IMG/VR virus record: IMGVR_UViG_3300017917_002918
Coordinates: 64,001 to 128,000 of that record
Strand: one strand, 5' to 3'
Origin: a virus
DNA length: 64,000 bases
The notes under the pieces were generated by a model. It searched no databases. It was given only the letters and a program-made list of their open reading frames with translations, and was not told the origin of the DNA. The translations under genes and the position numbers were made by a program. This document shows, in pieces, positions 4,418 to 31,477 of this stretch (position 1 is its first letter; every line of letters starts with the position of its first letter).

Positions 4418-4450
4418 AAAAAGTCCCCCTTTAATTTTTATATTATTGTT

Positions 4451-5717: not shown

Positions 5718-5767
5718 CCCTTTTTATAATTTAATTTAGTTATATTGGTTATATTGTTACTTATGTA

Positions 5768-7138: not shown

Positions 7139-7167
7139 ATTATACAGCATAGGAAATATATTGTCAA
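7139..7167 (-). promoter_or_regulatory. SigA-type promoter flanked by operator motifs
   Basis: TTGACA-17bp-TATAAT; operator copies at 7130-7142 and 7175-7189. Confidence 0.8.
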
Positions 7168-7201
7168 TACTATTATCATAATTTAACTATATAAAATAAA
7201 A

Positions 7202-7224
7202 ATAGGGAGAATAATTCTCCCTAT
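7202..7224 (-). terminator. Intrinsic terminator after ligA
   Basis: ATAGGGAGAA-TAA-TTCTCCCTAT hairpin followed by a T-rich run on the minus strand. Confidence 0.7.
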
Positions 7225-7236
7225 ACCTTACCATGA

Positions 7237-9234: not shown

Positions 9235-9271
9235 TTTTAAATCTCCTTATTTTGATTATTATTTTATATTA

Positions 9272-10225: not shown

Positions 10226-10318
10226 AAAGTCACCATCCTTTTCTTTGTTATAGAAAAATTCTCTTACATTAATTATAACATAAGAGAATTTAAAGTCAAT
10301 ATTATCATAATTTAATTA

Positions 10319-11980: not shown

Positions 11981-12183
11981 TTCATCCTCCGATGTGTTGT
12001 TATACTACTTATTAATTTTAATGCCTCAGAACGCCTCGTAGGGCTTCCTAAATTTTTACAAAATAGATTTAAATTAATATAATTTATCATAATTTAATTA
12101 TTAATTATTTTACAAAAATTTCATGTAAAACTGTTAATTTAGCTGAATTTTTGTGACCTAAAACCGTTGACACATCTATGTTG

Positions 12184-13200
12184 TTAAATATTACCAATGT
12201 CACTATTTAATGAATTTTTGTGATTTTCTATCCTAATATTTGCCAAATTAAAATATGTTTCATCCATTTCAAACCCTATGTAATTTCTATTAGTATTAAC
12301 ACATGCAATGGCTGTAGTCCCACTTCCCATAAATGGATCAAATATTGTCATATATTCATCACTGCTGTGTTTTATTATATTTTCAATTAATTCAACTGGT
12401 TTTGGTGTAATGTGTCCATGCTTGGGTGCAGGAGGATATAACCATACATTACTATTAGCCCTCAAATCTTCTTTAACTGTAGCTGTATTAAATTTATATC
12501 TTAAATCTTCATATTCTCTTCTTAAATCTTCATATTCTCTAAACCCAGCCCATTTATTAATATTTAGTTTGTCTACCATTTCTTGATAAACTTCTTTTGT
12601 GCCTAAATCCCATTGGGTTGTTTTCCAGTAAAAAGAATGTTCGGCTTTTCTATGTCCTAATTGCTCATTGATTTTTTTTAGTCCCAACCCTATGTATTCT
12701 TGTAAATCTTTAAAATATTTTCTTAATGAAGAGAAGTTATTGGTGTCCAGCATCACAGTATTTAATCCAGTTTCATCTTGAAAGGTATAATACAATATAT
12801 ATTCGGTGAAACCATTATAATAATTTCTCATCATATCAATACTTAATCTTTGCTGAACATATCCGTAATTTTTAAAATTTGGATCAATTTTATTCCATGT
12901 TATCAATTGTTTAAATACAAATTTACTATTTTTATTCAGCCAATTTTGCAATTCTACAATCTGCATAAAATCATTGTGAAAGAAATAAAAACTACCATTG
13001 TCTTTCAATACTCTTTGACATTCAGTAAACACCTTACCCATAAAATCTATGTAATCACTTTTATTTTTCCATTTATCCCATCGCTTATCTTTCCCAATGT
13101 TATATGGAGGATCTGCAACTATTAAATCGATACTCTTGTTTGGCATCAGTTTCATACCCTCTAAACAATCCTGATTATATATTTTATTTATCTCTAACAA
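12184..13200 (-). CDS. Beta-class N4-C/N6-A DNA methyltransferase
   Basis: DPPY near the N-terminus; H.TPKP and DPFMGSGTT near the C-terminus. Confidence 0.93.
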   Translation of the reverse strand: MLEINKIYNQDCLEGMKLMPNKSIDLIVADPPYNIGKDKRWDKWKNKSDYIDFMGKVFTECQRVLKDNGSFYFFHNDFMQIVELQNWLNKNSKFVFKQLITWNKIDPNFKNYGYVQQRLSIDMMRNYYNGFTEYILYYTFQDETGLNTVMLDTNNFSSLRKYFKDLQEYIGLGLKKINEQLGHRKAEHSFYWKTTQWDLGTKEVYQEMVDKLNINKWAGFREYEDLRREYEDLRYKFNTATVKEDLRANSNVWLYPPAPKHGHITPKPVELIENIIKHSSDEYMTIFDPFMGSGTTAIACVNTNRNYIGFEMDETYFNLANIRIENHKNSLNSDIGNI

Positions 13201-13236
13201 ATCAATTCACCTCATTATTATTTTTTGATTACATAA

Positions 13237-13722
13237 TCAAATACTCGTTTTATTTCGATTTCCCCTACTAAGCTCATCGAGGTTATCTTTTAAATTACAA
13301 TAATGAACATTAGAAAAACTAAGTTTTACCATACCTTCATGTCTTAACCAGCCTGTATTTTTCTCTAGTAATTCAATATCATATGATGTTTCACCATTTA
13401 CTTTATTAATTTTTGTTATTTTACACTTTTTGCCATAGTATTCGTTATCCATATTGATATAAAGTATATCGCCTATATTCCTCATAATAACCCTCCTATA
13501 AAAATTCGATTTTATTTACAATCTTCTTCCACACATAGGACAAAAATTTATTCTTTTATCTATACCAAAATTTACTTCTAATTCATTGCTATCAACTGTT
13601 TTAACTCTTATATGTCTTAATTTTGGAATAAATATTATATCTAAACTTCTTATAGTTCCATCTGATGATTTATAATCTTCAAGAATTGTTTGTTCAACAT
13701 TACAGTAATCGCAGTCACACAT
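13237..13722 (-). other. Two small hypothetical cassette genes (13237-13485, 13516-13722)
   Basis: Each is bounded by the junction motif; the second ends in FCPMCGRRL (Zn ribbon). Confidence 0.6.
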
Positions 13723-13752
13723 TAATATATTTCCTCCTCATCAAATCTTACC

Positions 13753-14598
13753 TTATTGTATTTCTGGTATTTGTTCTTTTATGTATTTATAAACGTGCCA
13801 TTGTAATAAATTCGGAGTAGCAGTCATTGGATATATTTCTTCCCAAATGACATCTTTTAATAGGCTTATTATTATTTCTTTATATTCTTTTTTATTGATT
13901 TTTATAAAAAACTCTTTAGCGTATTGCCTATCATTGTCTGATAAGAACCCACCTAATTTCAGTCCATTTTGACCAGTTCCCCATGCAAGTATTCTAATGT
14001 CATAATCAAAAATATCTTTAGTTATTACTTTTTGTCTTTTGGGGTTGCTATTTTTTATACTTTCCCTTATTTCCCTTATTTCCATTATTTCCATTATTTT
14101 ATAATTTTGTTTTTTATTTAATCCATTGTAGGGTCTTTTATAAATATTAAAACAACAATGCACTTTTCGATCACTATATTGTCTTATTCCCAAATCCTCA
14201 CTATGTATTAAATCAAATTTATATATTGATTGAGTGTTATTTAATTGGCTAATTGGAAGTATAAATGCCACATAATCCGACAATTCAAAAGACTTATTAC
14301 AAAACGCCTTAGTTAAATTATTTTTATTCCCATATGGGGGATTTCCGATTACACACCTTCCAGATTTATATTTCAAATCATTTATTAAATAATCTTGTTT
14401 AATAATTCTATCGTCTTCTGGTTCTATATCATAAGCTAAAGTTTCTTTTGGCAAATAATTCAGAAACACACCTGCTCCTGCACTCGGTTCTATGTATTCT
14501 GATATATTTTGCTCACCTATTATTTCTTTTGTTTTATTAACTATGTATTCTGCTAACTCTTGCGGAGTATAATATTTATCATTCAATATTTTAGCCAT
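13753..14598 (-). CDS. Gamma-type N6-adenine DNA methyltransferase, paralog 1
   Basis: DKYYTP, IEPSAGAG, GNPPYG. Confidence 0.88.
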   Translation of the reverse strand: MAKILNDKYYTPQELAEYIVNKTKEIIGEQNISEYIEPSAGAGVFLNYLPKETLAYDIEPEDDRIIKQDYLINDLKYKSGRCVIGNPPYGNKNNLTKAFCNKSFELSDYVAFILPISQLNNTQSIYKFDLIHSEDLGIRQYSDRKVHCCFNIYKRPYNGLNKKQNYKIMEIMEIREIRESIKNSNPKRQKVITKDIFDYDIRILAWGTGQNGLKLGGFLSDNDRQYAKEFFIKINKKEYKEIIISLLKDVIWEEIYPMTATPNLLQWHVYKYIKEQIPEIQ

Positions 14599-14667
14599 AA
14601 TATACCTCCATTATTATTTTTATTCTTATATTTTGATTATTTAACTTCTGATCAAATCTTACTTTTA

Positions 14668-15051
14668 TTACCATGTGATTGTGGGATAAATTTCTTCACA
14701 TTTTCCATTTTTAAAAACCCATCTCCACAAATTATCATCTTCTCCACTCATTTCAATATATGAATCCTCTTCAACGTAAGGAGCTATAGAATTAAATATT
14801 TCTAAATCATCACCTAGTTTTTCTCCTGAGAAATAATCAATTTTATAATCGCCATTTGTATTTTCAACTAGAGGGTATCTAATTTCTTCAAATGCTTCTT
14901 CTATGGTTTCACAATCTAAAATTGTATCAATATCTACCCACATTAATTTTTCCTTAGTTTTAACAAAATCTTTTAATGCTTTCAAAACAAAATTGGCATT
15001 TTCTTTCTTTATAACAAATCTAATTTCGTTACTTTCTATACAATATCCCAT
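14668..15051 (-). CDS. Hypothetical phage protein
   Basis: ORF with RBS, bounded by junction motifs. Confidence 0.65.
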   Translation of the reverse strand: MGYCIESNEIRFVIKKENANFVLKALKDFVKTKEKLMWVDIDTILDCETIEEAFEEIRYPLVENTNGDYKIDYFSGEKLGDDLEIFNSIAPYVEEDSYIEMSGEDDNLWRWVFKNGKCEEIYPTITW

Positions 15052-15080
15052 AATAAACCTCTCCTTATAAATACTTAAAT

Positions 15081-15878
15081 TTATTGTATTTCTGGTATGT
15101 ATTTTTTCAACACATCATTAATGTGAAATTGTTGAATTTTTAACATTGCAATACAGTTTAATTCTTTTTTCCAGTCTACATTTTTCAAAACATTAATTAT
15201 TTCGTTTTCTAAGACTTTGTTGTTGATAATTATTTTGTATTCAGCAGAATAACTCTCATTATCATTTAATATTTTTCCTGCGGAAGAATCTCCCCAATAA
15301 CACATTCTAATATTGTAATCTTTGATTGCATTAAACTTTTTACTATCTTGTCTTACTATGGTGATGTCTTTTAATTTATTTTTTTGCTTTTTATTAAACT
15401 CTCCGTTTTCAGGTCTTTTATAAATATTAAAACAACAATGTAAATCTATATTAGAATATGTTTGAACTCCTAAATCTTCACTATGTATTAAATCAAATTC
15501 ATATAAACTATTTGTATTATTTAATTGGCTTATAGGTAGTATAAAAGCTACATAATCACTGAGTTCTATTGCTTTTTTGTAAAATTTTTGTGCCATATGC
15601 ATATTTCTTCCGTATGGAGGATTTCCTATAATTAATCTTCCCCATAAATATCCGCACCCCAACTCCAAAAAATCTTGTCTTTTTATTGTAGGATGCTCAG
15701 GTTCAATATCATATGCCCAACATAATGACGGAACATTTAAACTAAAGCTTCCATTCCCTGCCGATGGTTCTATAACTTCAGAAATATTTTCTTCACCTAT
15801 GATTTCATAGGTTTTATCAATACAATATTGTGCTAAATCAACAGAAGTATAATATTTGTCTAATGCTATTTTGCTCAT
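15081..15878 (-). CDS. Gamma-type N6-adenine DNA methyltransferase, paralog 2
   Basis: DKYYT, IEPSAGNG, GNPPYG; shares ELSDYVAFILPISQLNN and C-terminal IPEIQ with paralog 1. Confidence 0.88.
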   Translation of the reverse strand: MSKIALDKYYTSVDLAQYCIDKTYEIIGEENISEVIEPSAGNGSFSLNVPSLCWAYDIEPEHPTIKRQDFLELGCGYLWGRLIIGNPPYGRNMHMAQKFYKKAIELSDYVAFILPISQLNNTNSLYEFDLIHSEDLGVQTYSNIDLHCCFNIYKRPENGEFNKKQKNKLKDITIVRQDSKKFNAIKDYNIRMCYWGDSSAGKILNDNESYSAEYKIIINNKVLENEIINVLKNVDWKKELNCIAMLKIQQFHINDVLKKYIPEIQ

Positions 15879-15939
15879 ATTACTTCTCCTATCATTATTT
15901 TTATATTTTGATTATATAAAATACAATAAATTCCACAAT

Positions 15940-16910
15940 TTATTTACTTCTAAATTCTTTCATATATTCAATAGTTTCTTCTGTTAAGGGCTTACCATTT
16001 ACCATGTGATTTAAAAATTCTTGTAATTGTTCTATTTTTACCCAATATTTAGATGGGGCTTTCAACCACCAATTAGAAGTCTCACATTTCTTAAATTCAT
16101 TAATAACATCCAATGCTATCATTAATTCTTTTATGTCTCGTTTTGACTTTAGAAAGTCAGTAATCATATAAATTACCTCCTTATAAATTCACAATTTTAT
16201 ACACTCTTTTTTATGGTTTCCAAAATTCTATCGCTCAAAGAATACGAAAGGGCTTCTATTATTTTATCATTATAAGAGTCATCTTCGATTTGTTGTATTT
16301 TTGTAATTAATAATTCAGGATTATCTTGTAAGTATTTTTCTATTATTGCCCCACCCCCACACTCCATAACTTTAAAAATAAAATAACTTTCTTCTTCTAT
16401 TGATTCTTTCACCCTATTACTCAGTTCCTCTTTATACAATGGGATTAAGTCACGAATTAACCCATCTCTTATGCTTTCTGTGATAAGTTCAGCCAAATAC
16501 TTTTGTCCTATATTGGCAATTTTGTTTCTCAATTCAGAAATTATTATTTCTTTAATTTCAAACCTGTCTAAGTAATTTTCGATATTTATATCCACAAATA
16601 TTCACCATCCTTATAAATTCATAATTTATCTATATTCCCATTCATTTGTTTCCTCGTTAAATATCATAAAAGCTCTATCCATAATACACTTCTTATCATC
16701 TAAATTCCAAAGTTCCTGTAAATTATCTCTTTCAGAATTAGTATCTGTGTCGATAGACGTTAATTTATTGTCTTTTTCGGACTCTTCTCTTACTTCAATG
16801 AGAATTTTTAATGCATCCAATACATCTCCGTTAAAATCATCTGGTAAATTTAGCACTAACTCCCTTATGTAAAATATTTTTTTTGATTTCATATTATCCT
16901 CCTTATTCAA
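15940..16910 (-). other. Small hypothetical cassette genes (15940-16167, 16197-16595, 16626-16910)
   Basis: Stop codons lie inside junction motifs. Confidence 0.6.
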
Positions 16911-17226
16911 TATCTGGTAATTCGATAGTCTTACCAGCCATCATATGTGTACAATCTGACAAGTATTCAATTATCCCATCTGTTACGAATGAATGACAAA
17001 CTTCTGTTACATACTCACCTTCCCACCCTTTAGGAGCTGGATTTTCATTACTGTAACCTTTAGGATGTTTCCATTTAACTAACATTGATGCCCTAAATGT
17101 TGGGTTATTAACGTCACCATTAAACGCCCATCTACTATCAAACATATGGCTTCTTCTACAAGCAGGACATTCTATTAGATAGTAAATTGTGCCGTCATTG
17201 TTGATTCCTTTTAATACTTTTGACAT
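16903..17226 (-). CDS. DUF6527-like Zn-binding protein
   Basis: CPAC..SH.F...WAFNG....PTF..S...CHSFVTDG.IEYLSDCTH.MAG. Confidence 0.7.
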   Translation of the reverse strand: MSKVLKGINNDGTIYYLIECPACRRSHMFDSRWAFNGDVNNPTFRASMLVKWKHPKGYSNENPAPKGWEGEYVTEVCHSFVTDGIIEYLSDCTHMMAGKTIELPDIE

Positions 17227-17360
17227 GTTGTTCTCCTTATAAAGTTCATGATTTATTGCATCCCTACATATCTGTATTCGGCAAGATCATCTAGTGCCTT
17301 CTTTGTTCTTTTACACTTATTTTTATATCTACTAATATTCCTCTTATAACTCATCAAATA

Positions 17361-18152
17361 TCACCTTTTTCTATACAATTTAGCTATTCCCAGTATCTTT
17401 TTATTCAAATCAGCTCTTTTCTCATCAGAAATAGTATAGCTATATACTGTCATAAAATCTCCAACCATAATCTCTGTGTTTCCATATTCAAATGTTTCAG
17501 AGTATAAATTACAATTTGTACAACTATATTTAAACTCTACTTCTGATTGTTCGTCTGAATAACTATAAACTTTTATTAAATCTTTATCACATATTGGACA
17601 TTTAATCATCGCAATTCTCCCAAAACTCTATCATAACTATTCCATGTAAGTTTAATTACTCTTCTATCACCATTAGTTGAATATACAACTTCTGCTTCTG
17701 AGCTACACTTTGAACATCTTAGCCAATCTATTCTAACTGAGATGTCATTCACATCATTATAGCAAGCCATTTCTGTTTTACATTTTATACATTTCATGAG
17801 TTCGCATCCTCCTGATCAAATACTTCATTTATTGTTATTACTTATAAAATATCTTTCTACAATCTGGACACTTCCACATCTGTTTGATTACTGAGTCACT
17901 AAACTTCTCACAATAACCTGTATTAAAAATGTTTTCATGATTACACATCTCTTGTGTTAATCGCCTTAATTGTTCAGTTCTGTTTTTTATTCCATTTTGA
18001 ATCTCTTCAATGTGATTTTCTAATTTTGGAATGATACTATCTAAGTGTTTCTTTGCACAAATAGGGCACAGTGACTTTTCTTTGCAACGTCCAATAGGAT
18101 AAATCTTCTTTGTTTCAGTGCCACACCAATTACAAAATACCATTAATCTCAC
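17361..18152 (-). other. Small Cys-rich (Zn ribbon) hypothetical genes (17361-17609, 17606-17797, 17838-18152)
   Basis: CxxC pairs; cassette organisation. Confidence 0.6.
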
Positions 18153-18406
18153 ACTCCAATCAATTTGTTTTATCTTGTTTTTTTAATACTCCCAATGTCC
18201 CCAGTAAAATGTTACCAGATAACTCCCACAGTCTTTACAATAAAGACTGAATTCCACTTCGATTGTATCATTTTCGTCTTTAGTTGTTTTAATGTTTCTT
18301 TTTTCATGATTAGTAGAATTGCATTTATGACATGTATAAGTATCTATCACACAACCATCTCCTTATAAAACATAGATTTTACTTGCTTTTACGATCTCTA
18401 AAACTC

Positions 18407-19345
18407 TTATGTATCAACATTATTATTTTTTAATAAATTATCTACAATGAGCTTAACGACATTTAAACTCATAGCATTTCCAAATAGTCTATATGCCTGT
18501 GTATCACTAACAACAATCTTATATGTATCGGGCAAACCCTGTAGTCTAGCACATTCTCTAGGAGTTAATCTTCTTAGATTCGTCTTGCCAATTGGGTTGT
18601 ATTCTGTGTGATAATAATTGTCTTGACTTGCCCTGTGCATTTTGAATAATGTTGAACATAGCGGTCTTGCTATTTTTAAATCTGTCTCTGGGTTTGCATC
18701 CCAACCACCTGTCCCTCTGCTTAAAACTGTTTTTAACATTTTTTCTGTAAGATAGTATTTATCATCTACCTTTGGTTCAAGTAAATCTTGAACACTCAAA
18801 TTGATGGATTGGTGTTTAGGAAACTCAAAATTAAATTCACCAAAATCTTTATGTTGTCCAATAATATAAACTCTCCGTCTTGTGTGTGGTATTCCGTAAT
18901 CCGAAGTATTTAAAATTTTATAACTAATATTATAATTTAATTCAAACAGTTCTTTTACAATTTTAAAATCATTTTTATTATTTGAAGTTGTTAGTTTTTG
19001 AACATTTTCAAATATAAAATATCTAGGTAATTTATAATTTAGTATGCGTATGTAATCATAAAACAACTTACTAGCACTCCCTTTTAATCCCATCCCATCT
19101 TTCTTCATTAAAGATATGTCAGTACATGGACTTCCACCTATCAAAATATCAAAATCAGGCAATTCCTTTTCATTAATTTGTGTAATATCCCCATAATTTT
19201 GTCTATTGGGGAAGTTTTCATTATAATTTTTTTCTGCATAAATATCTATTTCAGAATATCCAACGCAATCAGCATATAAATCTAAAGCCATACCACCTAT
19301 TCCAGTACCAGAAAATAATTCAAAATATTTTAATTTACCCATCAC
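18407..19345 (-). CDS. C5-cytosine DNA methyltransferase (single-TRD size)
   Basis: FSGTG, GGSPC, ENV, RRRVY, RRLTPRECARLQG, GNA. Confidence 0.93.
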   Translation of the reverse strand: MMGKLKYFELFSGTGIGGMALDLYADCVGYSEIDIYAEKNYNENFPNRQNYGDITQINEKELPDFDILIGGSPCTDISLMKKDGMGLKGSASKLFYDYIRILNYKLPRYFIFENVQKLTTSNNKNDFKIVKELFELNYNISYKILNTSDYGIPHTRRRVYIIGQHKDFGEFNFEFPKHQSINLSVQDLLEPKVDDKYYLTEKMLKTVLSRGTGGWDANPETDLKIARPLCSTLFKMHRASQDNYYHTEYNPIGKTNLRRLTPRECARLQGLPDTYKIVVSDTQAYRLFGNAMSLNVVKLIVDNLLKNNNVDT

Positions 19346-19395
19346 TTTTCTCCTACTATCATTTTTTAACTCACCATCCCAATAAAATATTCCTT

Positions 19396-19698
19396 TTACT
19401 TATTTTTTAATTCTTGCAATAAATAACTGTAATGTATTATAAGAGCTTCATTTTCTGCGATTTCTTTTTTGTATTTTTCATTATCTCTAATACAGATATC
19501 TATAATATCACTATACTGTCTTATTAAATCATCTTTATTGGGTTGAATTGTTTCGATTCTCACATATTCTTTGTAGCACGTTGGACACATATTGTAGGGA
19601 AGCCTACTTGTCATATATTGAAAATATTTATTGCAAATTTTACAATGACACATAAATAACACCACTCTTTTATTTTTAATTTGATTTATTCTTGCCAA
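19396..19698 (-). CDS. Hypothetical Zn-finger protein
   Basis: CKIC and CPTC motifs. Confidence 0.55.
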   Translation of the reverse strand: MARINQIKNKRVVLFMCHCKICNKYFQYMTSRLPYNMCPTCYKEYVRIETIQPNKDDLIRQYSDIIDICIRDNEKYKKEIAENEALIIHYSYLLQELKNK

Positions 19699-19855
19699 AG
19701 TTACCAGAGCAATTCCATACTACACCCACAGAACCGAATACTCGCTCAATCTTCTCATTACCACACTTAGGACATTGTTTTAGCGGAATTTGACTCATTT
19801 TTAACTCTAACTCTATTTCACCACAAGTCTCGCACTTAAACTCATATGTAGCCAT
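19676..19855 (-). CDS. FmdB-family zinc-ribbon protein (59 aa)
   Basis: Not in the ORF track; manual translation MATYEFKCETCG...QCPKCG..KIERVF. Confidence 0.75.
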   Translation of the reverse strand: MATYEFKCETCGEIELELKMSQIPLKQCPKCGNEKIERVFGSVGVVWNCSGNFGKNKSN

Positions 19856-19864
19856 CTTTTTACC

Positions 19865-21828
19865 TCACATTTCTTTCATATTATAATTATCTCTAACATG
19901 GTCACTAATGATTTGTATTTGACTCATCACAAATTCATCATTGGCTATAGTAGGATGCAATCTCGCCGTACAAGTTAATTCCTTACCCATTTGTTTGTAT
20001 TTGCCATAATTAAACAGCAGTATCACCAGTGGTATTTCTGTACGATTCTTTGTCAATAGTTTTTGCAATAATTTAAATATCATAATTCAATTAACCTCGT
20101 TTCAAATTAATATTATTGTTTAATTATGTCCTACAGTCTATATAGCCCTGTTTTACAATAGTATCAAACTCTTTTTTGCTTAGAGTCATGTAATATTCGT
20201 TAGAGTGTTCAAATTGCATATAGTACACGACAATTCCGAAAGCTCCGCCACGATAATGGCTTGTTAGTCTTAATTTAGAATCAACTATTGTTATCACTCC
20301 AATCTCATGAGCAGTTTTAATCTACAAATTCATAATCTGTCCATCCAAGTTCACAATATTTCTGCTTTATTTTTGCAATCTCCAACCATCTAGTTTCATT
20401 ATTTATCCTACGTGGTGTATAAACACGCCAATTTGCCACATAATCCGAATCTTCACACATATATTCGATTGAAAATTTAGTCTTGCGATGTCCCTTTAAA
20501 TAGAAAAACTTATTGCCAATCTTCTCAACGGTTGCTTCTTCAATATGATCAATGATATCGTCTGTTATATATCGAGATTTATTATTTATTGGTTTCAAAT
20601 ATACTATTTGACCAACTTTGAGTTTTTCCATATCAACATCATCCTTTTTAATCTATTTTAACACATGTTTATTTACCAGTGAGATAATCTAATCTAGATT
20701 CCACTTCGTCCCATTCACCACAATTATTGTCTTCTGCCCATTCATCATCTGGATTCCATTTAAAACCATCGTCATCTATTACCAATACAGATATTTTTCC
20801 GCATTCATTAATATTTCCAAACGAATAATAAGCATTAAGAATATGTTCGTCTACTTCTGATTGTAGGCATTCCTGATTGTATACTTCTTCATTAAATAAA
20901 TACCCTATAACTCTCGCCACATTTATACCCCCAATATTCCAAATAAAATTTAGTTTTTACACACTTTAAATTTCAGCTTCATCGAATCCATTCTTAATTA
21001 CATTGTCACTAAAGCTAACGCCCTTTAAAAAATCTACAAATAAATCTACAACATCATGAATATCCTCATATTCATCAAATGTCTTTGATACAGTTACAAC
21101 TCTACCATCTGCCTCTACATATTGAAAGCTATAAGTTGTTCTATTGTTTTCCATCTCAATCATTTTTACACCATCCTTATATAATTATTTATCACCTGTT
21201 TGCCATAACCACGCCAAACAATAACCCAAAAATCCAAACGCTCCGAACGAAAACACACCAGTGTTATAAGAAATTAACGCATCAAATATGTAAAACAAAA
21301 GCCATAATGTTAAACCTTTTGCTAGTGAGTATTTACGTAATTTATCCAATATGATTTTCACAAAAATCACCTCACTCTTTACTCAGTCATATAAGTTAAT
21401 AACCCACCATAACAATACCAACATTGCCATTAGAAAATATACAATGATTAATACTAAATTTGCATATGCAATTATAATAAACGGGAACAGCATATAACTA
21501 TACTTTCTGAAGCTATTTAGATTGTTGGTAGGTGTGTGCAGAAAGTGAATTAAATTATGTATTACCAAGAATCCTACTGCACTTAGTAATATTCCTGCAA
21601 AATACAAATCGTAATACATCATTCACACACCTTTGCAACAGTAAATATTATTAAAATAAGAACAACTAATGCTATTGGAATCAATATTGGACTTAATACC
21701 CACCACCATGACCAAGCTATGAAGTTTGTTAACTTCAGCCCAATGAATAGAATTGTGAGTAATCCCAAAAATCCTATTCCACCACTATTATTGCTACTAT
21801 TATTGTTTGATGTCGCCATGAAAATCAT
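19865..21828 (-). other. Array of small hypothetical and membrane proteins (19865-20083, 20317-20631, 20669-20920, 20966-21163, 21185-21370, 21383-21622, 21619-21828)
   Basis: Co-directional ORFs with RBSs; the last three are hydrophobic with about two TM segments. Confidence 0.55.
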
Positions 21829-21877
21829 CTCCTTTACCTTGTTATGTGGCTATATAATCATAAGTTAATTACAAACC

Positions 21878-22092
21878 CTGAATCTCTGCACGAGCTAAAG
21901 CTCGGCAGGTTCTTACATACTATTCAACTTCTATAATAAATCTCGATTTATTATCACTTTATTATCACTAATTGATTTCTGTAAGACTTTCACTAACAAG
22001 AGTTACAACTAACTCATTGACGTTAGTATATAGGCTCAATTCAAAACCTGTTTCATATCTATATTACATTTTTCAACGCATTATTTAAGTAA
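21878..22092 (-). mobile_element. Non-autonomous IStron-like / IS200-IS605 right-end relic
   Basis: 3' end AAGAACCTGCCGAGCTTTAGCTCGTGCAGAGATTCAG resembles an IS605/IStron right-end hairpin ending in TTCAG. The interior GTGAAAGTC...GATAATAAAGTGATAA resembles group I intron P4-P6. It is preceded by GTGAT (TTGAT-like target). Confidence 0.45.
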
Positions 22093-22176
22093 ATCACATA
22101 GCCACACTTGGTTATATATTAATATTACACTACTTATGTTGAATTGTCAATATAATTATCATAATTTAATTATAAA

Positions 22177-22747
22177 TCACTTATTTTTACCAATTCCCAT
22201 GATTTTACCTGTAATGAACGACATAACAAGCACATACACAGTAACGGCAACCCATGTCGGAAGTATGTACAGTAATTGAGCTACACCCATAATGATTGCT
22301 AGAATTGGTACAGTAACTAACAAACCCATACCTGTTGTTTTGAAAAATGACTTAATTTTATTCATCATATTACTTTTCTCCTTTCGGGTTTAATTTATAA
22401 AACTCTTTAATTTCGTTATATGTACTACCAATTACATTTTTAAAATCATTAACTTCATTAATCGCTTTCTTGAATAGCTTCTCTTTAACTGTCAGGTTAT
22501 AAGCACCAATTGATATTGCTAACCAATCACCATAATATCCAGTCCATTTCCACGTGTTAGTATTTTTATCAAGCAATTCTAATTCCATTTGTGAATCTTT
22601 AACTACAGCTCTAACATAATCATTAAACATTACAATAGTTGACCTAGGTTCAACTTTTTTTCTTTTAACTTCACCATCTTCAGTTATTTCTTCCATATCT
22701 TCAATTTCAACTTGATCTAAATCATCTCTTTCATCATCCATAACCAT
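22177..22747 (-). other. Two hypothetical CDSs (22177-22368 membrane; 22370-22747 with acidic N-terminus)
   Basis: ORF track; RBSs. Confidence 0.55.
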
Positions 22748-22764
22748 ACCTCCATAGTCTTATT

Positions 22765-23340
22765 TTAATTACAGCATTTGCATTTTACGTCAAACAAATC
22801 ATTTACAAATATTTCAGCGGAGTCCTTTAGTTTACTTAAATCTCCGTCGTTTTGAACTATGTAATCATATGCGAAGTCAAACACATTTGCATCTGCTTCG
22901 TTGGTTAAAATCTGTGATATTCTTGAGTTTACCACAAGCACTGTCACAACTTCATCCTCATTGAATTGGTCTTTTAGTTTTTGAATCTCAATTGGTTCAC
23001 GAATATGAACGCATATGATTGACCTATCTGAATTGAGTCTCACCAATCTAAAATCAGATATTCTTTTCATCATATACTTCAATGGTGAATCATAATATTT
23101 TGTTGCTAAGTCCTTTAGCTCAGCTAAGAAACTTCTATCACGCTCATATTTACAACCATTCCACCCTAATATTTTTCCTGCAAACTTCACTTCGTCTACA
23201 CTTGAATAGTTTTCTACATAGCAGACCTCGCCTAGTAGTTTCGAAAATGTATCTTTACCTGTACCACCAGAACCATTAAGTATTACAATTTTTTGCACAT
23301 TATCACATCCTTTACAAGAATAAAATATCCAACCTCTCAA
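22765..23340 (-). CDS. P-loop kinase, dNMP-kinase-like
   Basis: IVILNGSGGTGKDT Walker A; R.FL.ELK; HIREP.E; YDYIVQND. Confidence 0.7.
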   Translation of the reverse strand: MRGWIFYSCKGCDNVQKIVILNGSGGTGKDTFSKLLGEVCYVENYSSVDEVKFAGKILGWNGCKYERDRSFLAELKDLATKYYDSPLKYMMKRISDFRLVRLNSDRSIICVHIREPIEIQKLKDQFNEDEVVTVLVVNSRISQILTNEADANVFDFAYDYIVQNDGDLSKLKDSAEIFVNDLFDVKCKCCN

Positions 23341-23946
23341 TCATTTCATTAATACTTAGTTCCTTGTTCAGTCTTTCCCTGAAGATAGCTCGCAAGCTAT
23401 CACCTTCAGTTCTACTTACTCTTACATCTAACCAACCATCCTTTTGCCTTATTTCAGCGTACTCATCTTTTTCGGTTATTACCCTAATCTTCTTTAACTC
23501 AACTTCTTGAACAATCTCAATTATATGTTTAACACTTACCATTACTATTGTTATACCTCCATAATCATATTTTAATTACTATAACTAATTATAACATAAT
23601 TGCGAATGTTGTCAAGAGAAAATGAAAAAAACAACAACATATTTCAATTATATATTGTTGCTTTTTCGTGATCTCACTCAGAAAACACAATCACGCTTCC
23701 ATTTAATAGTACCAATGTTACAGCATTTAACATATCATCATATTCACACTTTACAATGTCACTAATGATAATACTCATGTCTGCGTAATCCTTCGTACTT
23801 CCAAAATACAGAATCAAATCTTGAACATCATAATAGAAATCTTCCAAAATAATGTTACCCATAATTCCTGTTACTAAGTTCATTGTTACTGATTTTCCTT
23901 TAAGGTTAGACAAACCTTCTGACAAAATCTTCTGATATGTAGTCAT
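23312..23946 (-). other. Two hypothetical CDSs (23312-23542, 23674-23946)
   Basis: ORF track; operator motif directly upstream of each. Confidence 0.5.
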
Positions 23947-24003
23947 AATAACACCTCTTAAATATTATATTTTAATTATATGTAAAGAAAGGCAAAGCCT
24001 TTC

Positions 24004-24948
24004 CTATAGCATCTCTTGTAGTCTCGCCTTAGTCTTCGTCCAGTAACCAGCACTATAGCCAAATCTCTCATTAATTACAATCCAATCTTCCTTGTCTAGC
24101 TCGCCTTTCTCTTCCTTGATTTGTTTAGCCATGTCTAGCATACCTGAGTACCACATTCCTGTAACAGTCCAGTATTGATTTCCCCAATATTGCTTAATTC
24201 TATTCAACCTTGCAGTTATGTTTGTTGCTTTAATTGCTCCTTCACATTGTCTAGCGGCAACTCTCAACACGTAATCTGTTTTTGTTATGACATAATGATT
24301 AGATTTAAGATCTGGTGAATCCTCCCCATTATTCTTATAGTAGAATTCCTCATCTAATGCTCTCCTAATGTAATCTATAGCCAAATCGGACACTATAATC
24401 TTTCTAGTTTCACCATTGTTTTTAGTTAACGTCAATTCATTTGAAATAAATCCTACATCTGACTCTTTTAAGTTGATAATCTCTTCTGCATCTTCACCTT
24501 TAACACCTTCAAATGGCAATATCAAACATAATGCATCCTGTGCATTAACACATGAACCTGCAATTTCTTCTAATTCTGCACGGGTAACGTATTTCTTTCC
24601 CTGTATATTTACATCTACATACTTTAATAAATCTTCATAACCACCTATGCCTTGCAAATAATTAACTTTTGTTTCAATATATCCTTCTTTGTTCGCAAAG
24701 TCTAGGTATATTTTTAACACAGATAATACACTTGCTACAGCCTGAACACTACCATTACAATAACTTTTCAACAAAGAATCTAATTCATTATTGTCCATCT
24801 CATATATGTCTTTATTAAGCATTGATTCTGTTTCATAAGATTTTTGAAGAATGTACTTATAATAAATTTGTGTACTTGCAGAGTAATTTTCCAAAAATCT
24901 ATTTTTAAAATCTTGATTATACAAGACTTGACTTAAATATTTGTTCAT
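24004..24948 (-). CDS. MrpR/YopR-like phage repressor (degenerate tyrosine-recombinase fold)
   Basis: YN..FK.RFL...E..LNKDIYE; NAQD...L.LPFEGV.G...EEI.NLK; lacks the catalytic R and HxxR; lies downstream of a yopQ-like gene as in SPbeta. Confidence 0.72.
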   Translation of the reverse strand: MNKYLSQVLYNQDFKNRFLENYSASTQIYYKYILQKSYETESMLNKDIYEMDNNELDSLLKSYCNGSVQAVASVLSVLKIYLDFANKEGYIETKVNYLQGIGGYEDLLKYVDVNIQGKKYVTRAELEEIAGSCVNAQDALCLILPFEGVKGEDAEEIINLKESDVGFISNELTLTKNNGETRKIIVSDLAIDYIRRALDEEFYYKNNGEDSPDLKSNHYVITKTDYVLRVAARQCEGAIKATNITARLNRIKQYWGNQYWTVTGMWYSGMLDMAKQIKEEKGELDKEDWIVINERFGYSAGYWTKTKARLQEML

Positions 24949-24973
24949 AATTTCAAATCCCTTCTATACTATA

Positions 24974-26260
24974 TTAGTTATTATTAATATTTTCAGATAT
25001 AATATCGACCAATTTTTTCATGCTCTGTTTATTGATACTTTTTATATCACTAATATTAATTTTGCTATTTAACGAATCGTTGTCTAGCAACTCTAATATA
25101 ATATCTTCCCAATTCCCCATTTCATAAGTAGCATATATTAAACAAATATAATATGCCCAAGTAGTTTGTTCTACTGCCACCTTGATCAAATCTTGTTTCA
25201 ACTCTATAATGTGATTCAATCCATCAATGATACGCTTACTATACTTTACAATATCTAGTCTTTCCTTTGGTTCAAAAGTATATTCAATTGCATCAGCTAG
25301 TATATCAAATGCAACAAATGCTTTACCTTTTTTGATCATGAAGTCATCAAACGATACTAAACCTTTGAGGTATGAATTAGAATTCTCATTGATCTTCTTA
25401 ACTATTAAATTTGAAATACTATCTGAGTTCAATGATTTAATATATTTCTTATTCATTTTGTTCTTCTTATCTTCTTGAACAATATACCTTCTTGCCTTAT
25501 CTAAGTCAAAATTTGTGATACTCACACCTGTTCTAAACTCAACATTAGGATTCTCTTGTACAGCATAAATCATGCCTAAACTTCTATGGAATCCATCAAG
25601 AATATTTGTTTCTCCTGCATATATAGTAAGAGTTTTTTCTTTCTCATTATATTCAAATTGTTCCTCGCCACTTTGCATTATGTTAAAAGTGATATAGTTT
25701 GATATAAATTTAGAAGAAAGAATATCTTTCTTTATTTCTTGAATAGATGTCTTATTGATATCTATTTCTTCGATAATCTTGTCTTTATATTCCTTCTTCT
25801 TCAGTGCTCTCTGTGTTTCGGGATTGTATATGATAACTCGTCTACTATATAGTTCAGCTATCTCTTGAGCAGTCATATATGTTACCCACATGTCTGAATT
25901 AATCTTCTCTACATTTTTAAATACAATCGGATATTTTGACTTTCCCTCAATATCAGCCTTCCAATTGTCACCTTCCTTGATTTCAAGTTCTGTAAAGAAC
26001 TTTTCTGGATTGATTCTTTCTTCACTCGTAGCTTCATATAATGATTTTGTAAATATATACAACATAACTTGACTAATTGTATTAATTGGTGTTAGTAACA
26101 TCAAAATCGAATTAGCATCACCAGCTAATAAGTTATGTCCCTTGAATATGTCTGCTACCTTCATTTTAACATGCCTATTCTTTGCATATTCACTAATCAT
26201 TATTGTTAATTCTTTCTCTAATACGTCTCTTTTTGTTCTCATAATTAATATATCCTCCAT
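24974..26260 (-). CDS. YopQ-like DndB/DGQHR-domain (ParB-like fold) protein
   Basis: YNPETQR, ITFN and ILDGFHR motifs; synteny with the mrpR-like gene. Confidence 0.72.
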   Translation of the reverse strand: MEDILIMRTKRDVLEKELTIMISEYAKNRHVKMKVADIFKGHNLLAGDANSILMLLTPINTISQVMLYIFTKSLYEATSEERINPEKFFTELEIKEGDNWKADIEGKSKYPIVFKNVEKINSDMWVTYMTAQEIAELYSRRVIIYNPETQRALKKKEYKDKIIEEIDINKTSIQEIKKDILSSKFISNYITFNIMQSGEEQFEYNEKEKTLTIYAGETNILDGFHRSLGMIYAVQENPNVEFRTGVSITNFDLDKARRYIVQEDKKNKMNKKYIKSLNSDSISNLIVKKINENSNSYLKGLVSFDDFMIKKGKAFVAFDILADAIEYTFEPKERLDIVKYSKRIIDGLNHIIELKQDLIKVAVEQTTWAYYICLIYATYEMGNWEDIILELLDNDSLNSKINISDIKSINKQSMKKLVDIISENINNN

Positions 26261-26402
26261 TATTAAATTTGCATCTATAATTAGTTTATAATATTATTGG
26301 CACTAAGTCAATAATATATGTATAAAAAAGGAAAATTAATTTATGTTCATAGATTTACTAATTGACATATTATCATATGCTCGTATATTGCGTCAAGAAT
26401 AA

Positions 26403-26705
26403 TTAAATCATAGCGTACAATTTAATTAATTTAGTATCCATTCCCTTACGATTTAAGACATAATCATCATGACGTTGTATGTAATCAAATACATCTGACA
26501 AATCATAATACTCTCTGTCCCACATGTGCTGATAATGATATTCTTTTGTGTTTCGTCTTGTATTCTTATGCATTAATTGAAATATATCATCATATATATC
26601 CACTTTCCACGAGTCTAATTTTGAGGACACAAGAACTACGTTTTGTAGCACTTGCACCCTAAAACCATAACTCATTGCTAATGTTACAACATCTGTCTCA
26701 CACAC
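26403..26705 (-). CDS. Hypothetical protein
   Basis: ORF downstream of the mazF-like gene; LMHKN...YHYQ motif. Confidence 0.55.
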   Translation of the reverse strand: MCETDVVTLAMSYGFRVQVLQNVVLVSSKLDSWKVDIYDDIFQLMHKNTRRNTKEYHYQHMWDREYYDLSDVFDYIQRHDDYVLNRKGMDTKLIKLYAMI

Positions 26706-26726
26706 AATATAATAAACACCTGCTTT

Positions 26727-27314
26727 CTATACATATACTAATTCTTTTGTTTTAAAATACTCTTTAGTTTCCTTTATAACTTCTTTATAATCTCTGCCTA
26801 ATTTTGCACAATACTCCATTAATTCTTTCATTAGTAATTGTTTAGCTTTTATTTGTTGATTTAATTGTTTAGCCAATATATCCAACTGCCTAATACTAAG
26901 CATTATTTCCCTGACATATTCAAAATTCAAACTCATAATTTGATTATTGATACCGACTTGAATCATTACTGCATTTTCAAGTTGTGCCATGGTAGTTTCT
27001 GTAACTTCGCCAATTTTAAATTTTAATCTAGATTTGTCTATAGTTTGTGATTGTTCACACAACGCTATTGATTCTGATTTCAAACCCGAATCTAAACCCA
27101 CTAACACATGAGTTGGAACTTTTTTCATTTTATTTATGTTTGATGATAATGGTATCACCGTAATTGTTGGACTATAAGTATTACATTTATTGTTGCTTAA
27201 ACAAATTACTGGTCTTAAACCTTGTTGAATACTGGTTTTTTCTGAACTACTCATATAATTCAAATCTGCAAACCATATTTCACCCCTTTTTATTGTTGTA
27301 ATTGTGCTGCTCAT
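26727..27314 (-). CDS. PemK/MazF-family endoribonuclease with a C-terminal helical extension
   Basis: KRGEIWFADL..Q.GLRPV...SN...N.YSPTITVIPLSS..PTHV...S.ALCEQ..TIDKSRL. Confidence 0.88.
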   Translation of the reverse strand: MSSTITTIKRGEIWFADLNYMSSSEKTSIQQGLRPVICLSNNKCNTYSPTITVIPLSSNINKMKKVPTHVLVGLDSGLKSESIALCEQSQTIDKSRLKFKIGEVTETTMAQLENAVMIQVGINNQIMSLNFEYVREIMLSIRQLDILAKQLNQQIKAKQLLMKELMEYCAKLGRDYKEVIKETKEYFKTKELVYV

Positions 27315-27440
27315 ACTACCAAACTCCCTTCAAATCATCTTATAATTAATTTATTGTTGCTTCTTGAAACTATAATACCACCAAATTATTACAATGTCAA
27401 CAAAAAAGATCATAAATTAATTATAAGATTTTTAATTTTA

Positions 27441-30400
27441 TTAAATTAACTGTTGAAGCTCCTCTCTAACATCGTCATCGAGGATATCTCCGACCATATC
27501 ATTTAATTTAACTAACATCGACTTGAGTTTATTATATGCAATAATTGAATCGTTATACATTAATTTGGCAGATTCAACATCATTTTTTAATTTTATAACT
27601 TCTTGCTGAAGTTGATACATTTCTAAAGTTTTGAAGGGTAGATATGATTGTAATTGCAATTGCAATTGATATATGTGAGATAATAGCTCATGTTCTCTAT
27701 CTGCTGTTATCTGTGGTGATTTATTCTCTAATTCTTCTGACATAGTTACATCACTTCCTGTACTTGATTATTCATTATTTTAATATGTTCTTTGTCATCT
27801 TTCCAAACATATTCGACTCTGTAATCGCATTTGACACACCATCCTAATTTACCATTCGTTGCAATTTGATTCAAGCAATTAGGACATTTTTCGTTTCTGT
27901 ACCAACAAGTATGCAATGTATTGTCCATTACTTTATCACTCCAATTCATACTTTATTTATTCCACGTCTCGGATATTTCACCCGTTGCACCACAATTATT
28001 GCAATAAACAGGGTAGGTTTCCACATCTTTTGCCATGCCTTTTAAATATGTAATTTCACCGAATTTTACTTTTGGACTTTTGCATTTAGGACAATATATG
28101 AGAGTCCCTTCGAATCCAAACCACCAATTACTAATTGCTTTATATATTGATTTCACAGATAATACACCTACGCTTTCACATTTAATTTTGCAAAACTGTT
28201 CTTGCAGTAATCTTTAGCCTTTTTTAATGCTATTTTCCTATCTTTATCACCAATCCCGAAAACTTCGATATGGGAATATCCAGTCCTAACCAAACAAAAC
28301 CAACCATTTTCATTGATAAAATCGTACTGTCTCATAGCTTTATCACCTCATAAATTTCTCATTTTATTATCCTTTTATCTAATAAAAGAAATAATTTATT
28401 GTTATTTCAACCTACCCAATATTGATAATATTGTCCATATACACACTATAGTTCCAGCTAAATAAATGTAAGACGAAATATAATTTTTTCTTAAACTATA
28501 TTTAATGGCAAGTATGCTAAAAATTAATTGTAATATAAATAATATAAATACCATCACTCAACACTCCCATCTTCAATTTTAACATCCCATGATTCTGAGT
28601 CTGTTGAATAAATCACAAATTGTTGCTGAAATTCATCTTCAGGCACTTCTATTACTAACACATCAAGTTTAATACTACGTATTACGGCGTAATCTCTAGG
28701 TAAATATCCCTTGAATTTAAATGATACTTTCATTCCTACTTTTAATATGTCCTCATCCCAAACTAATATAGGTATCATTTTTTGCTTAGTCATTACTCAC
28801 CACGCTCCTTATCCTTCTCTGCCTTACAAAACTCTTCAAAGCTTAGTACATCGGTATCAATCAAATCATCTATACCTCCAGTTAATAAGTCCAACAAATA
28901 TGCATCATACTTGTCTCTCATTACTATAAGATCGCCTCTCTTACTTAGTGTACCTTTTTCTGCTGAATCAATTGTTGTGATTGAGCTTCCATTTACAAAT
29001 TCTATTTTCATACATACTCCTTATAAAATCAGCATTTTACTGTAGTTAATTTGTTCTCTTTTCATAAAATTTAATGATGTTGTATATCATTTTTAAAACA
29101 TTATCGGCTGTTATTTCTTTTTCTGTAGCTTCAAGCACAAGAGACATAATTGTTGTTCTAAAAACATAGTTTTTTTCAAAAAATTCCTTGTAATCATTAT
29201 TAGAATTAATTAATAGCTCAACTTCAGAAGTTTTCATAATTCACATCTCTTTTATATTACTGACTAATTTGTTTTTTACAAGAGATAGTCCGTAAAGATT
29301 CAAATTTTCAAAATCCACAGGTGAACTATCTAGGTACTCAAAATATTTTGCTTCCGCACAGCTAGGAGAACAATAAAATTCAGTCAACCATTTGCTATAC
29401 TCAACTTCCATACCTTTAACCAATACAACTTTACATTGTCCACATAATATATTTTTACTCATATTAATTATTAACCCCCTGTTTTATCTTCTTTTACAGA
29501 ATAATATTATATCAATTTAATATTGAATATTAAACTACCAATAAATTAATTAATTTGGAATTTCACAGAGTCTATTTACTATTTCGTAAAACATATTAAG
29601 ACATTCAGAGCTACAAAATTTTCCATGAGATAATATTTCAACATAGTTAGTTTCATCATCACACATTAAGCATTTGTCATATTTGTCTTTTTTCATTAAC
29701 ATATATATCCCCATATCATTATCTGTAAATTTCAACATTATCACCATCCTTATTATTAAATTATACCTTATAAACCAAGTGTCTTATTTCCTTGTGTGTT
29801 ACAGTGGTTATGATACAGCTTAATTTATAATTAGTTACTACTAAATCTGAAATAATACATTCTTTGGGAATACTAATTCCATAACAATGACCAATTACAG
29901 ATGATCTTTTTATTGCTATTTTATTTTTAATCTCTTCAACATAACTTTCCCAACTCTCCACTTCAATTACTCTTGATTGAAAATCTTGATCATATATATT
30001 TGTTTCAATGACCATAATCATCTAAATCACCATCCTTATAAATTCGTTCTTTTATTACAATTTTAGCTTCTTTAGTTCCTTTATTAATTTGTTTACTTCT
30101 TTGACACAAAATTCTTCTAATCCACCAGCTTCTTCGATCTCATCGCTAGAATCTAATTCAGAATTATATATCTGAATTCCTATGAACTCTATTATAGACA
30201 CAAACCCATCTGTTATTAGATCAAATCTAAATCTACTAAAATTATCTTCTTTTCCAAAAAGTCTTATTTCAAAAAGTCTATCATTTAAATTAGATACCAC
30301 ATCTACTTCATTTATCATTTAAATCACCTCTCGATCAAATCATGTTTTTATTACGTTATTTTGCGAAAGAAATCCCAAGGTAAAGACTTTGTTTTAACTG

Positions 30401-31285
30401 TGGTAGATGGTGGAACTGGTTCAGATTTCTTTGTTTTTTCTTTATTAACAAAATCCAATATCTTCTCAGTTAATTGCATTGCTCCTTCTGTTGTGTGAAA
30501 AACCAAACCTCGCTCATAATTCCTATTATCAAACCCATCATCCTGCCAAGTAAGCTGAGTATAACCTTTATTATCGTCAATGCTTGTAAGATAATAAATA
30601 TCCCCTACTTTGGGCTTTCCGATTTTTCTTACCGTTATAAAGCCTCTGATTAAATCCAGTAAAACATCATCGTTTCTATCGCCATTTTTATCTTCTACTC
30701 CATCTTCGGTCATTTTAAATATTAAATTATCCATAAACTCATTGATTCCAAATAATTCTCCTAATTCTAAATCAAACATTTTGGCTATTTGTTCCATTCT
30801 CTCCATCTAAACCATCTCCTTTTAAGTACTTTTCATAATATTCCTGCTTCTAAATATGCCTTACTTATGTTTTCAGCATTATTAACTATATTAATCATTT
30901 CTTTTGCTCTTAGCTCAATTTCTTCGTTTGACTTACATTGTTCAAGTATTTCTAAAATAATTTTCATAAAATCATGTTTATCCATAACAACAATCTCCTT
31001 TATACCCTCTTCCCGATCTGAATGTCGGAAACATATTTTGCTACCGATCTTAATGTCGGGAGCACACTTACCGATAAAATGAAAGTTTTACAATATTTAC
31101 TTCACATTACTTGAAGCATTAAACTCACGATTCTCATTAACTATTTTCTCCATAATATGTAACAATGCTTGATAATTGCATTTACCACATGACTTATTGC
31201 TACTTCCGAACTCGCATGGTAAACATTGCTCATTAACCACTTGATTAAACAATAAATCCATTTTTTCTTTAATGTTCTTTTCCAT
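27441..31285 (-). other. Second array of small hypothetical genes (about 14 ORFs of 50-150 aa)
   Basis: Co-directional, RBS-led, many Cys-rich; several separated by the junction motif. Confidence 0.6.
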
Positions 31286-31319
31286 AATTCACCTCGTTAT
31301 CATGATTTAATTATATATT

Positions 31320-31431
31320 GAGAGTAGAAGGGATTCGAACCCTCACTATATGCACCTTACCCTACTAACCACCTGTGCATATCGCCCGTGCAGACCCACG
31401 CAACTGCTTTTACCATTTAGCAACTACTCTC
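31320..31431 (-). ncRNA. Atypical tRNA-like RNA (112 nt)
   Basis: Acceptor stem GAGAGTAG/CTACTCTC, D arm GCT-AAATGGTAAA-AGC, T arm GAGGG-TTCGAAT-CCCTT. Anticodon arm is non-canonical, the extra arm is 35 nt, and no CCA is encoded. It has its own promoter. Confidence 0.7.
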
Positions 31432-31449
31432 ATATATAATCATAATTTA

Positions 31450-31477
31450 ATTATAAACTATTTAATTAAAATGTCAA
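31450..31477 (-). promoter_or_regulatory. SigA-type promoter for the tRNA-like RNA and downstream array
   Basis: TTGACA-16bp-TATAAT; operator motif overlaps the -10. Confidence 0.65.

Follow-up and report, generated by a model that had tools for sequence, protein, structure and literature searches.

Two arrays of small genes and their junction site

The IMG/VR record IMGVR_UViG_3300017917_002918 is a single 167,401-bp virus genome with direct terminal repeats and about 30% G+C. In this study, we analysed bases 64001-128000 of this record, a stretch of 64,000 nucleotides called the window here, and a short repeated site, m1, that lies between small genes on its minus strand. Sites and genes are given in window coordinates unless a genome position is stated. 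The minus strand carries the genes of window 12-33 kb, which include two arrays. Array A (13237..22150, minus) consists of small genes and four DNA methyltransferase genes and has a sigma-A promoter at 22150. Array B (27441..31477, minus) consists of small genes and has a consensus promoter at 31477. Strong minus-strand sigma-A promoters were found only at 31477, 27400, 23615 and 22150, and neither consensus promoters nor terminators were found inside arrays A and B. The arrays are therefore promoterless polycistronic units.

Read on the coding (minus) strand, m1 is RTAAAW-N6-WTT(T/G)AT, which is equivalent to TAAA-N8-TTKA. It is 16-18 bp long, and its arms contain only A and T and measure 5-6 bp each. 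The genes that flank m1 show no relationship to one another, with the exception of one pair of Eco57I-like methyltransferases (49% identity), and most of them have no Pfam family. Paralogy as the origin of the repeated junctions was rejected, as this is the only paralogous pair.

An initial annotation of the window had described these arrays as gene cassettes bounded by a quasi-palindromic site. All 17 exact TAAA-N8-TT(T/G)A sites in its list are present on the coding strand, at the positions that it gave. The other three are variants: the site at 16614 has a 7-nt spacer (N7), the one at 13741 combines N7 with a TAAG left arm, and the one at 17354 has no recognisable left arm. The described unit, consisting of the site, a Shine-Dalgarno sequence (SD), a promoterless open reading frame (ORF) and a stop codon inside the next site, was also confirmed, and this cassette-like anatomy is real. 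The overlapping gene pairs 16903/16910 and 17606/17609 indeed have no site between their members.

The individual sites, all on the minus strand, are placed as follows. The left arm is the stop codon of the upstream gene at 15068..15083 (gene 15081-15878), 15927..15942 (15940-16167), 16184..16199 (16197-16595), 19383..19398 (19396-19653) and at the N7 variant 16614..16628 (16626-16910). The right arm adjoins the SD of gene 14668-15051 at the first of these and the next SD at 16184 and 16614, and site 15927 is followed by a methyltransferase leader described below. At 17240..17255 the left arm is the stop codon of an uncalled ORF, 17253-17354, and the right arm adjoins the SD of gene 16903-17226. 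This ORF of 33 codons (minus) occupies the 134-nt gap between genes 17361-17609 and 16903-17226. The left arm supplies an in-frame back-up stop at 17816..17831, a TTGA variant that adjoins the next SD, and at 20944..20959, upstream of gene 20669-20920. Tandem in-frame stops were found at 30039..30054 and at the TTGA variant 30335..30350, both adjoining the next SD. Site 14652..14667 lies directly 3' of a TAA stop, giving a second TAA in frame, and the methyltransferase leader follows it.

Three further sites adjoin the SD of the gene behind them, namely 13499..13514 (gene 13237-13485), 18366..18381 (18183-18350) and 29024..29039 (28793-29011). At 13237..13252 the TGA in the right arm is the stop codon of gene 13237-13485, and the AATCAAAA leader of an N6/N4 methyltransferase gene follows. 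Two sites, 28383-28398 and 28351-28366, form a pair at 28351..28398; they are 32 bp apart with a 4-codon mini-ORF alone between them. Site 31075..31090 lies 3' of the first gene of array B and has hairpins instead of an SD behind it. These are two hairpins of the type CCGACATT(A/C)AGATCGG, located past the site in the gap 30986-31096 (minus), before gene 30833-30985. An m1-type palindrome without an SD behind it was also found at 12126..12141, 43 nt past the last gene of array A. On the plus strand, the junctions of a gene cluster at 60500-61700 contain m1-type palindromes (61003, 61359, 61400, 61660) at 6-10 nt from an SD.

Spacing and position of m1 in this and other phages

The number of sites was compared with shuffled controls. 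In the whole window, TMAA-N8-TTTA had 83 matches, against 37 +/- 7 in dinucleotide shuffles. The 29 array junctions (1,578 nt, in window 13.2-21.0 and 28.2-31.1 kb) contained 16 sites, against 0.75 +/- 0.88 in mononucleotide shuffles of those junctions, so that the motif held up in the shuffle check which the initial annotation had proposed. Every other spacing from N4 to N13 gave 0-2 sites in the same junctions. Sites were present at 13 of 22 co-directional junctions in the arrays and at 4 of 57 in the remaining genome; as the annotation had noted, core operons do not use m1. When five phage genomes were pooled, the co-directional gaps contained 204 sites at N8 vs 59-79 at N5-N11. No N8 excess was found in the coding, convergent or divergent regions of these genomes, and m1 was depleted in the divergent, promoter-bearing gaps.

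The position of m1 is tied to the stop codon on one side and to the start signals on the other. In genes with a TAAA stop context (n=370), TTKAT occurred at +12 in 39 cases and at any other offset in 0-9, and the same test within coding sequence was flat. The TAA of the left arm was the stop codon, or in frame with it, at 55 of 83 junction sites in three genomes. About half of the junction sites had the right arm 12-23 nt upstream of the start codon. The commonest junction measures 29-34 nt and is composed of TAA(A), 8 variable bases, TTTAT or TTGAT, an AAGGAGG-like SD, 7-9 nt and the start codon. TTKAT followed by an SD before a real start was nearly confined to the arrays, and 12 such copies also had the left arm.

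We considered whether m1 has no function and is simply a by-product of AT-rich composition together with TAA stops and strong SDs. A and T make up about 70% of the genome, the stop context found most often is TAAA, and coding sequence also contains the bare pattern. However, N8 alone among the spacings was enriched, both in this phage and in independent data sets, the junction shuffles gave far fewer sites than observed, and a reversed control pattern was 5-10 times lower. Because of the spacing and shuffle controls, this explanation is already contradicted, and we give it next to no weight.

The independent data sets were obtained with the methyltransferase pair as bait, which gave 80 metagenome loci and 80 IMG/VR loci. 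In the 74 non-redundant metagenome loci, TAAA-N8-TTKAT was counted 109 times on one strand and 94 times on the other, vs 16-59 at other spacings. At the bait-gene loci, the site was located at the stop codon in 20 of 71 and upstream of the bait gene in 18 of 77. Whole records were counted against the reversed pattern. The palindromic form exceeded this control in G000 (15 vs 3), G005 (43 vs 4), G006 (32 vs 5), G007 (14 vs 3) and G011 (8 vs 1), and six larger records (G013, G014, G019, G020, G021 and G023) showed a weak excess or none (14 vs 18 to 15 vs 7). One 20-kb stretch of G005 had 14 junctions of the stop-site-SD form. Only 0.3-4 kb could be aligned between most pairs of the complete phage genomes, and only four ORFs of this phage, those for a Xer-like recombinase, for a primase and for the two bait methyltransferases, were matched by homologues throughout G005-G008. 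These results demonstrate that m1 is common to AT-rich phages with almost no shared genes, which is a new observation. In L255 (G005) at 4327-12400, and also in L182, L191 and L194, a second repeated palindrome, GTGTTGAAATTTCAACAC, occurs about 20 nt past many m1 sites.

No real enrichment of m1 was found in three candidate host metagenome-assembled genomes, from Clostridium (184 vs 137), Clostridiaceae (57 vs 58) and Bacillota (115 vs 94), whose assignment is weak, being made solely through short binned contigs that carry the bait methyltransferase. A general signal shared with the host was rejected on this basis. m1 is a real, precisely spaced, phage-specific intercistronic element that is tied to stop and start signals.

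Such an element could be purely an expression signal on the polycistronic mRNA, acting in termination-reinitiation or translational coupling or as a target for the shut-off of early messages, with no role in recombination. T4 RegA and RegB are comparable factors that switch off early messages. This explanation would account for the strictly intercistronic position of m1, the stop or in-frame TAA of the left arm, the sharp +12 peak, the right arm placed against the SD, and the rarity of TTKAT with an SD before a real start outside the arrays. Several findings speak against it. Folding of the 17 sites as RNA gave a mean minimum free energy of -0.85 kcal/mol; 7 of the 17 remained unfolded, and the hairpin was lost in longer context. 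A stable RNA hairpin at m1 was rejected because of this marginal folding energy. Many sites have no SD behind them, both here (12126, 31075 and 15927) and in other phages. In this phage the core operons make no use of m1, the candidate host genomes are not enriched in it, and the motif-rich phages have no conserved RNA-binding protein in common. We regard a pure expression signal as unlikely, although it is the strongest of the alternatives. If it is correct, m1 would represent a kind of intercistronic punctuation that is new. The idea that m1 is a promoter, used by a sigma factor or RNA polymerase of the phage, was also rejected, as m1 lies too near the start codon; searches for a phage sigma factor and for a multisubunit RNA polymerase found neither.

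Recombinases, homology breakpoints and the exchange of genes

The initial annotation had attributed the arrays to an integron-like mechanism of tyrosine recombination. Like integron arrays, the m1 arrays are composed of co-oriented promoterless ORFs of unrelated genes behind one upstream promoter, and an imperfect palindrome at the 3' end, often including the stop codon, is directly followed by the next cassette. However, no integrase gene, attI or Pc adjoins them, and each array has a single upstream sigma-A promoter. An integron integrase (IntI) was not found; the best genome recombinase scored 90 bits on TIGR02249 (cut-off 265) and 57 on NF011946 (cut-off 435), and it looks Xer-like. attC sites are imperfect palindromes of 57-141 bp with RYYYAAC and GTTRRRY cores and extrahelical bases. 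In contrast, m1 has 18 bp and shows no attC features and no GTTRRRY or RYYYAAC core. With no IntI, no attC anatomy, no adjacent recombinase and 17 spacers of which no two are alike, the proposed mechanism is not supported. The integron label fails on the tested features, and the cassette-like architecture holds.

Three PF00589 genes are present in the genome, at genome positions 1.0, 38.5 and 131.7 kb. The arrays occupy 77-95 kb, so that these recombinases are at least 38 kb away and none adjoins them. The annotation had also placed the required recombinase outside the window or in the host. Three catalytic-type tyrosine recombinases are indeed located there, but the window itself contains an integrase-fold MrpR/SroF homologue in which key catalytic residues are missing. 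The core site of a tyrosine recombinase has two inverted binding arms and, between them, an overlap region of 6-8 bp that is identical in the recombining partners. m1 has this geometry, which was likewise proposed, with very short arms and with spacers that are never identical. Apart from these genes, an IS607-family serine transposase was found at about 53840-54523 (minus; 219 bits on NF033518), with a 397-amino-acid ORF adjacent.

A site-specific system without an integron integrase was then weighed. In such a system, a tyrosine recombinase of the phage, such as the Xer-like enzyme of these unrelated AT-rich phages, would bind the arms, cut at the edges of the variable 6-8 bp centre, exchange strands there and move SD-ORF-site units within and between phages. 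The inverted arms around a variable centre, the apparent joints at the 3' edge of the right arm and the two adjacent sites without a gene between them are compatible with this. PF00589 recombinases are present in every motif-enriched record (2-4 genes each, with three in this genome). Among the six non-enriched jumbo records, five lack them, and the sixth, G020, gave a sub-threshold match of 17 bits. A Xer-like recombinase is also among the only four ORFs common to five motif-rich genomes. However, this link between recombinase and motif comes from a small sample, picked through a single bait gene, in which it cannot be separated from genome size and probable lifestyle. The arms of known tyrosine-recombinase sites, such as loxP, FRT and dif, are far longer than those of m1. 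The lack of an integron integrase and the distance of the recombinases from the arrays also speak against a site-specific system. Because all 17 spacers are different, reciprocal exchange of the Cre/FLP type is disfavoured, and exchange of one strand is not spoken against. Taken together, we consider an Xer-like cassette system improbable. If it is true, phages would have their own equivalent of the integron, built on a minimal site.

Breakpoints between relatives, which the annotation had suggested comparing with the motif, were examined at six junctions in metagenomic relatives. Three of the six breaks of homology were at the edge of the site, one of them at an N7 variant, and three were not. 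L182 and L184 are 100% identical over 945 bp, comprising a methyltransferase and the site, and are unrelated right after the right arm. Past the site, L182 continues with a small gene whose N-terminus resembles that of 28793-29011, and L184 with a gene whose N-terminus resembles that of the N6/N4 methyltransferase 12184-13200, as judged by eye from the DNA. L163 and L168 (98% identical) likewise break exactly past the right arm, and the segment common to L213 and L217 starts directly after the N7 site. In the relative L021, a homologue of gene 19396 is followed by m1 and then by a different gene.

These findings recall the PeSL (promoter-early stem-loop) elements, mobile regulatory cassettes of T4-type phages, which were proposed to be exchange points between otherwise unrelated sequences (PMC2839356, PMC4122927). 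Like PeSL, m1 is a short conserved motif beside small genes of variable regions, most of them unknown. Homology between related genomes breaks at PeSL and, at three of the six junctions examined, at m1. A PeSL combines an early promoter with a terminator-like stem-loop, and every such unit is transcribed on its own. m1, in contrast, is an 18-bp AT-only palindrome that has no promoter or terminator-like stem-loop, lies inside polycistronic operons and is fused to a stop codon and an SD. The phages that carry m1 also differ from the T4-type phages in being AT-rich and having strong SDs of the Gram-positive type.

Our preferred reading, a tentative one at somewhat less than even odds, is that m1 is a PeSL-like intercistronic connector which both punctuates translation and serves as a joint for the exchange of modules. 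m1 would be the conserved core of a connector of about 30 nt, with the order (stop) TAAA, 8 nt, TT(T/G)AT, SD, 7-9 nt and start, which may join promoterless accessory genes inside long early operons. In translation, the left arm would provide the upstream TAA stop or its in-frame back-up, and the right arm would stand directly 5' of a strong SD. The moving unit would be the SD, the ORF and the next site, and recombination between connectors could join or exchange such modules, most likely by short homology rather than by a dedicated recombinase. Because the same sequence flanks unrelated genes in many co-occurring phages, m1 is a plausible place for modules to be joined or exchanged. We infer that recombination uses m1 and that selection for the double role would keep the arms.

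The following points weigh against the connector. At three of the six junctions, in L181/L210, L160/L190 and L211/L212, the breakpoint was off-site, either 10 nt away or near an SD with no site, and only three joints are informative. The position of joints at junctions is also weak evidence for a mechanism, because selection on its own would let joints survive between genes. For the other array genes, homologues were rarely flanked by a site, at 1 of 44 3' ends and upstream of 3 of 45, against a background of 6%. These homologues are few and mostly site-free, and therefore frequent cassette traffic is not demonstrated; co-transfer of the other array genes with m1 was not seen among the compared phages. 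For homologous exchange, arms of 5-6 bp are very short. No close relatives of this phage were detected in nucleotide searches of the phage collection, and gain and loss in this genome itself cannot be mapped for that reason. Exact-protein look-ups found one other sample only with identical sequence, an IMG/VR search with two array proteins gave one weak match, and a word-based search with gene 19396 returned only itself.

Except in the T4 group, the ways in which phages take up and rearrange their many small accessory genes are poorly understood. Should m1 guide exchange, it would account for the movement of orphan genes and DNA methyltransferases among phages of anaerobic Firmicutes that are not related to each other, and it would offer a simple sequence marker for finding such arrays.

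The MrpR/SroF-like protein and the second motif m2

The integrase-fold homologue inside the window is encoded at 24004..24948 (minus), between arrays A and B. This MrpR/SroF (YopR)-like protein matches the Pfam families MrpR_N_CB and MrpR_C_cat and is 27% identical to YopR/MrpR of SPbeta over its full length. Its PDB matches are only to MrpR/SroF structures. In the family alignment, the first catalytic arginine is replaced by lysine and both histidines are missing. Judged by its sequence, the protein is probably a repressor and not a recombinase. Its gene belongs to a minus-strand module at 24004-27314, which encodes a MazF/PemK-like protein with a C-terminal extension (26727-27314), a 100-amino-acid protein, a YopQ/DndB(DGQHR)-like protein (24974-26260) and the MrpR/SroF-like protein. 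The module order is kept in metagenomic relatives and partly in SPbeta (yopQ-yopR).

MrpR is an integrase-fold repressor that has lost catalysis and binds a repeated element, SPBRE, which in SPbeta adjoins the SD at yopM and yopV (PMC10516654). Because of this placement against the SD, m1 was at first taken for an operator of the MrpR-like protein. SroF of phi3T binds as a monomer to an asymmetric AT-rich box of 26 bp, and its specificity differs between close phages (preprint 10.1101/2025.11.27.690993). SPBRE and the phi3T box resemble m1 in being repeated and AT-rich, with A-tracts, in occurring in phages that encode MrpR/SroF, and in having some copies against an SD. However, the copies of SPBRE, about 10 in number, lie in promoter regions, and the phi3T box lacks symmetry, whereas m1 is palindromic, intercistronic and conserved across phages including one without MrpR.

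m1 could still act as a set of stoperator-like operator or roadblock sites for a phage repressor, possibly the MrpR/SroF-like protein, that silences the accessory operons. The MrpR/SroF homologue between the arrays, its conserved YopQ-like and MazF-like neighbours, and the motif-dense regions near the MrpR-like gene in G000, G005 and G008 are in favour of this. Stoperators lie in short intergenic gaps within operons, are oriented with transcription and are specific to each immunity group. Those of cluster A mycobacteriophages are, like m1, many short sites across a phage genome (PMC9283540, PMC6550527), and they set an example of numerous repressor sites placed in short gaps between genes (PMC9283540). 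They are described as asymmetric (PMC9283540), whereas m1 is symmetric and common to unrelated phages. In the complete genome G006, 32 palindromic sites were counted and no MrpR homologue was detectable, m1 is absent from promoter gaps, and its arms stay conserved among phages with MrpR proteins that share only about 30% identity. The monomeric binding and variable specificity of SroF also argue against this role. MrpR as the partner of m1 was accordingly downgraded; the protein encoded here fits m1 poorly, and we consider repressor roadblocks very improbable. The connector thus ranks first, followed in order by the expression signal, the site-specific system, the repressor roadblock and the by-product; the remaining probability belongs to mechanisms not considered here.

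A second motif, m2, has the sequence RTAATTAAATTATRAT, also written RTAATTAAATTAT[G/A]AT. It is 15-16 bp long and far more conserved than m1, with 64 copies at no more than one mismatch genome-wide. Sixty of these copies are intergenic and 59 are co-oriented with the local genes. They are located 2-8 nt upstream of a TTGACA box, across the -10 box together with the start site, or next to an SD; examples on the minus strand are at 10318, 12100, 22172, 23578, 23978, 27423, 31313 and 31453. m2 shares 12 of 16 positions with the phi3T SroF box, and its placement is like that of SPBRE. Because of these two features, m2 is a better candidate than m1 for the operator of the MrpR/SroF-like protein; m1 shows neither sites in promoter regions nor an asymmetric box. 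Variant forms of m2 occur beside promoters in the relatives L021, L023 and L024. Exact-pattern scans of IMG/VR for m2 and for m1 with an SD gave single scattered matches only.

The sites at 13237, 14652 and 15927 have no direct SD, and a shared leader, AATCAAAATATAA, precedes three methyltransferase genes there. This leader, of the form AATCAAAA[A/T]ATAA..., lies between m1 and the SD at 13200-13236, 14599-14651 and 15879-15926 (minus). The three genes belong to two unrelated families, and the duplicated methyltransferase unit has m1 on both sides. The leader is m2-like and also precedes the homologue of a bait gene in contig L164. That m1 is a degenerate m2 was rejected, since their position matrices differ and both stand in tandem before the methyltransferase genes.

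Directly behind the promoter at 31477, Rfam matched a 111-nt tRNA at 31320-31430 (minus) with 40 bits over the full model. ARAGORN found no tRNAs in the window, and the Rfam match may therefore be a tRNA bearing an insertion or a tRNA mimic.

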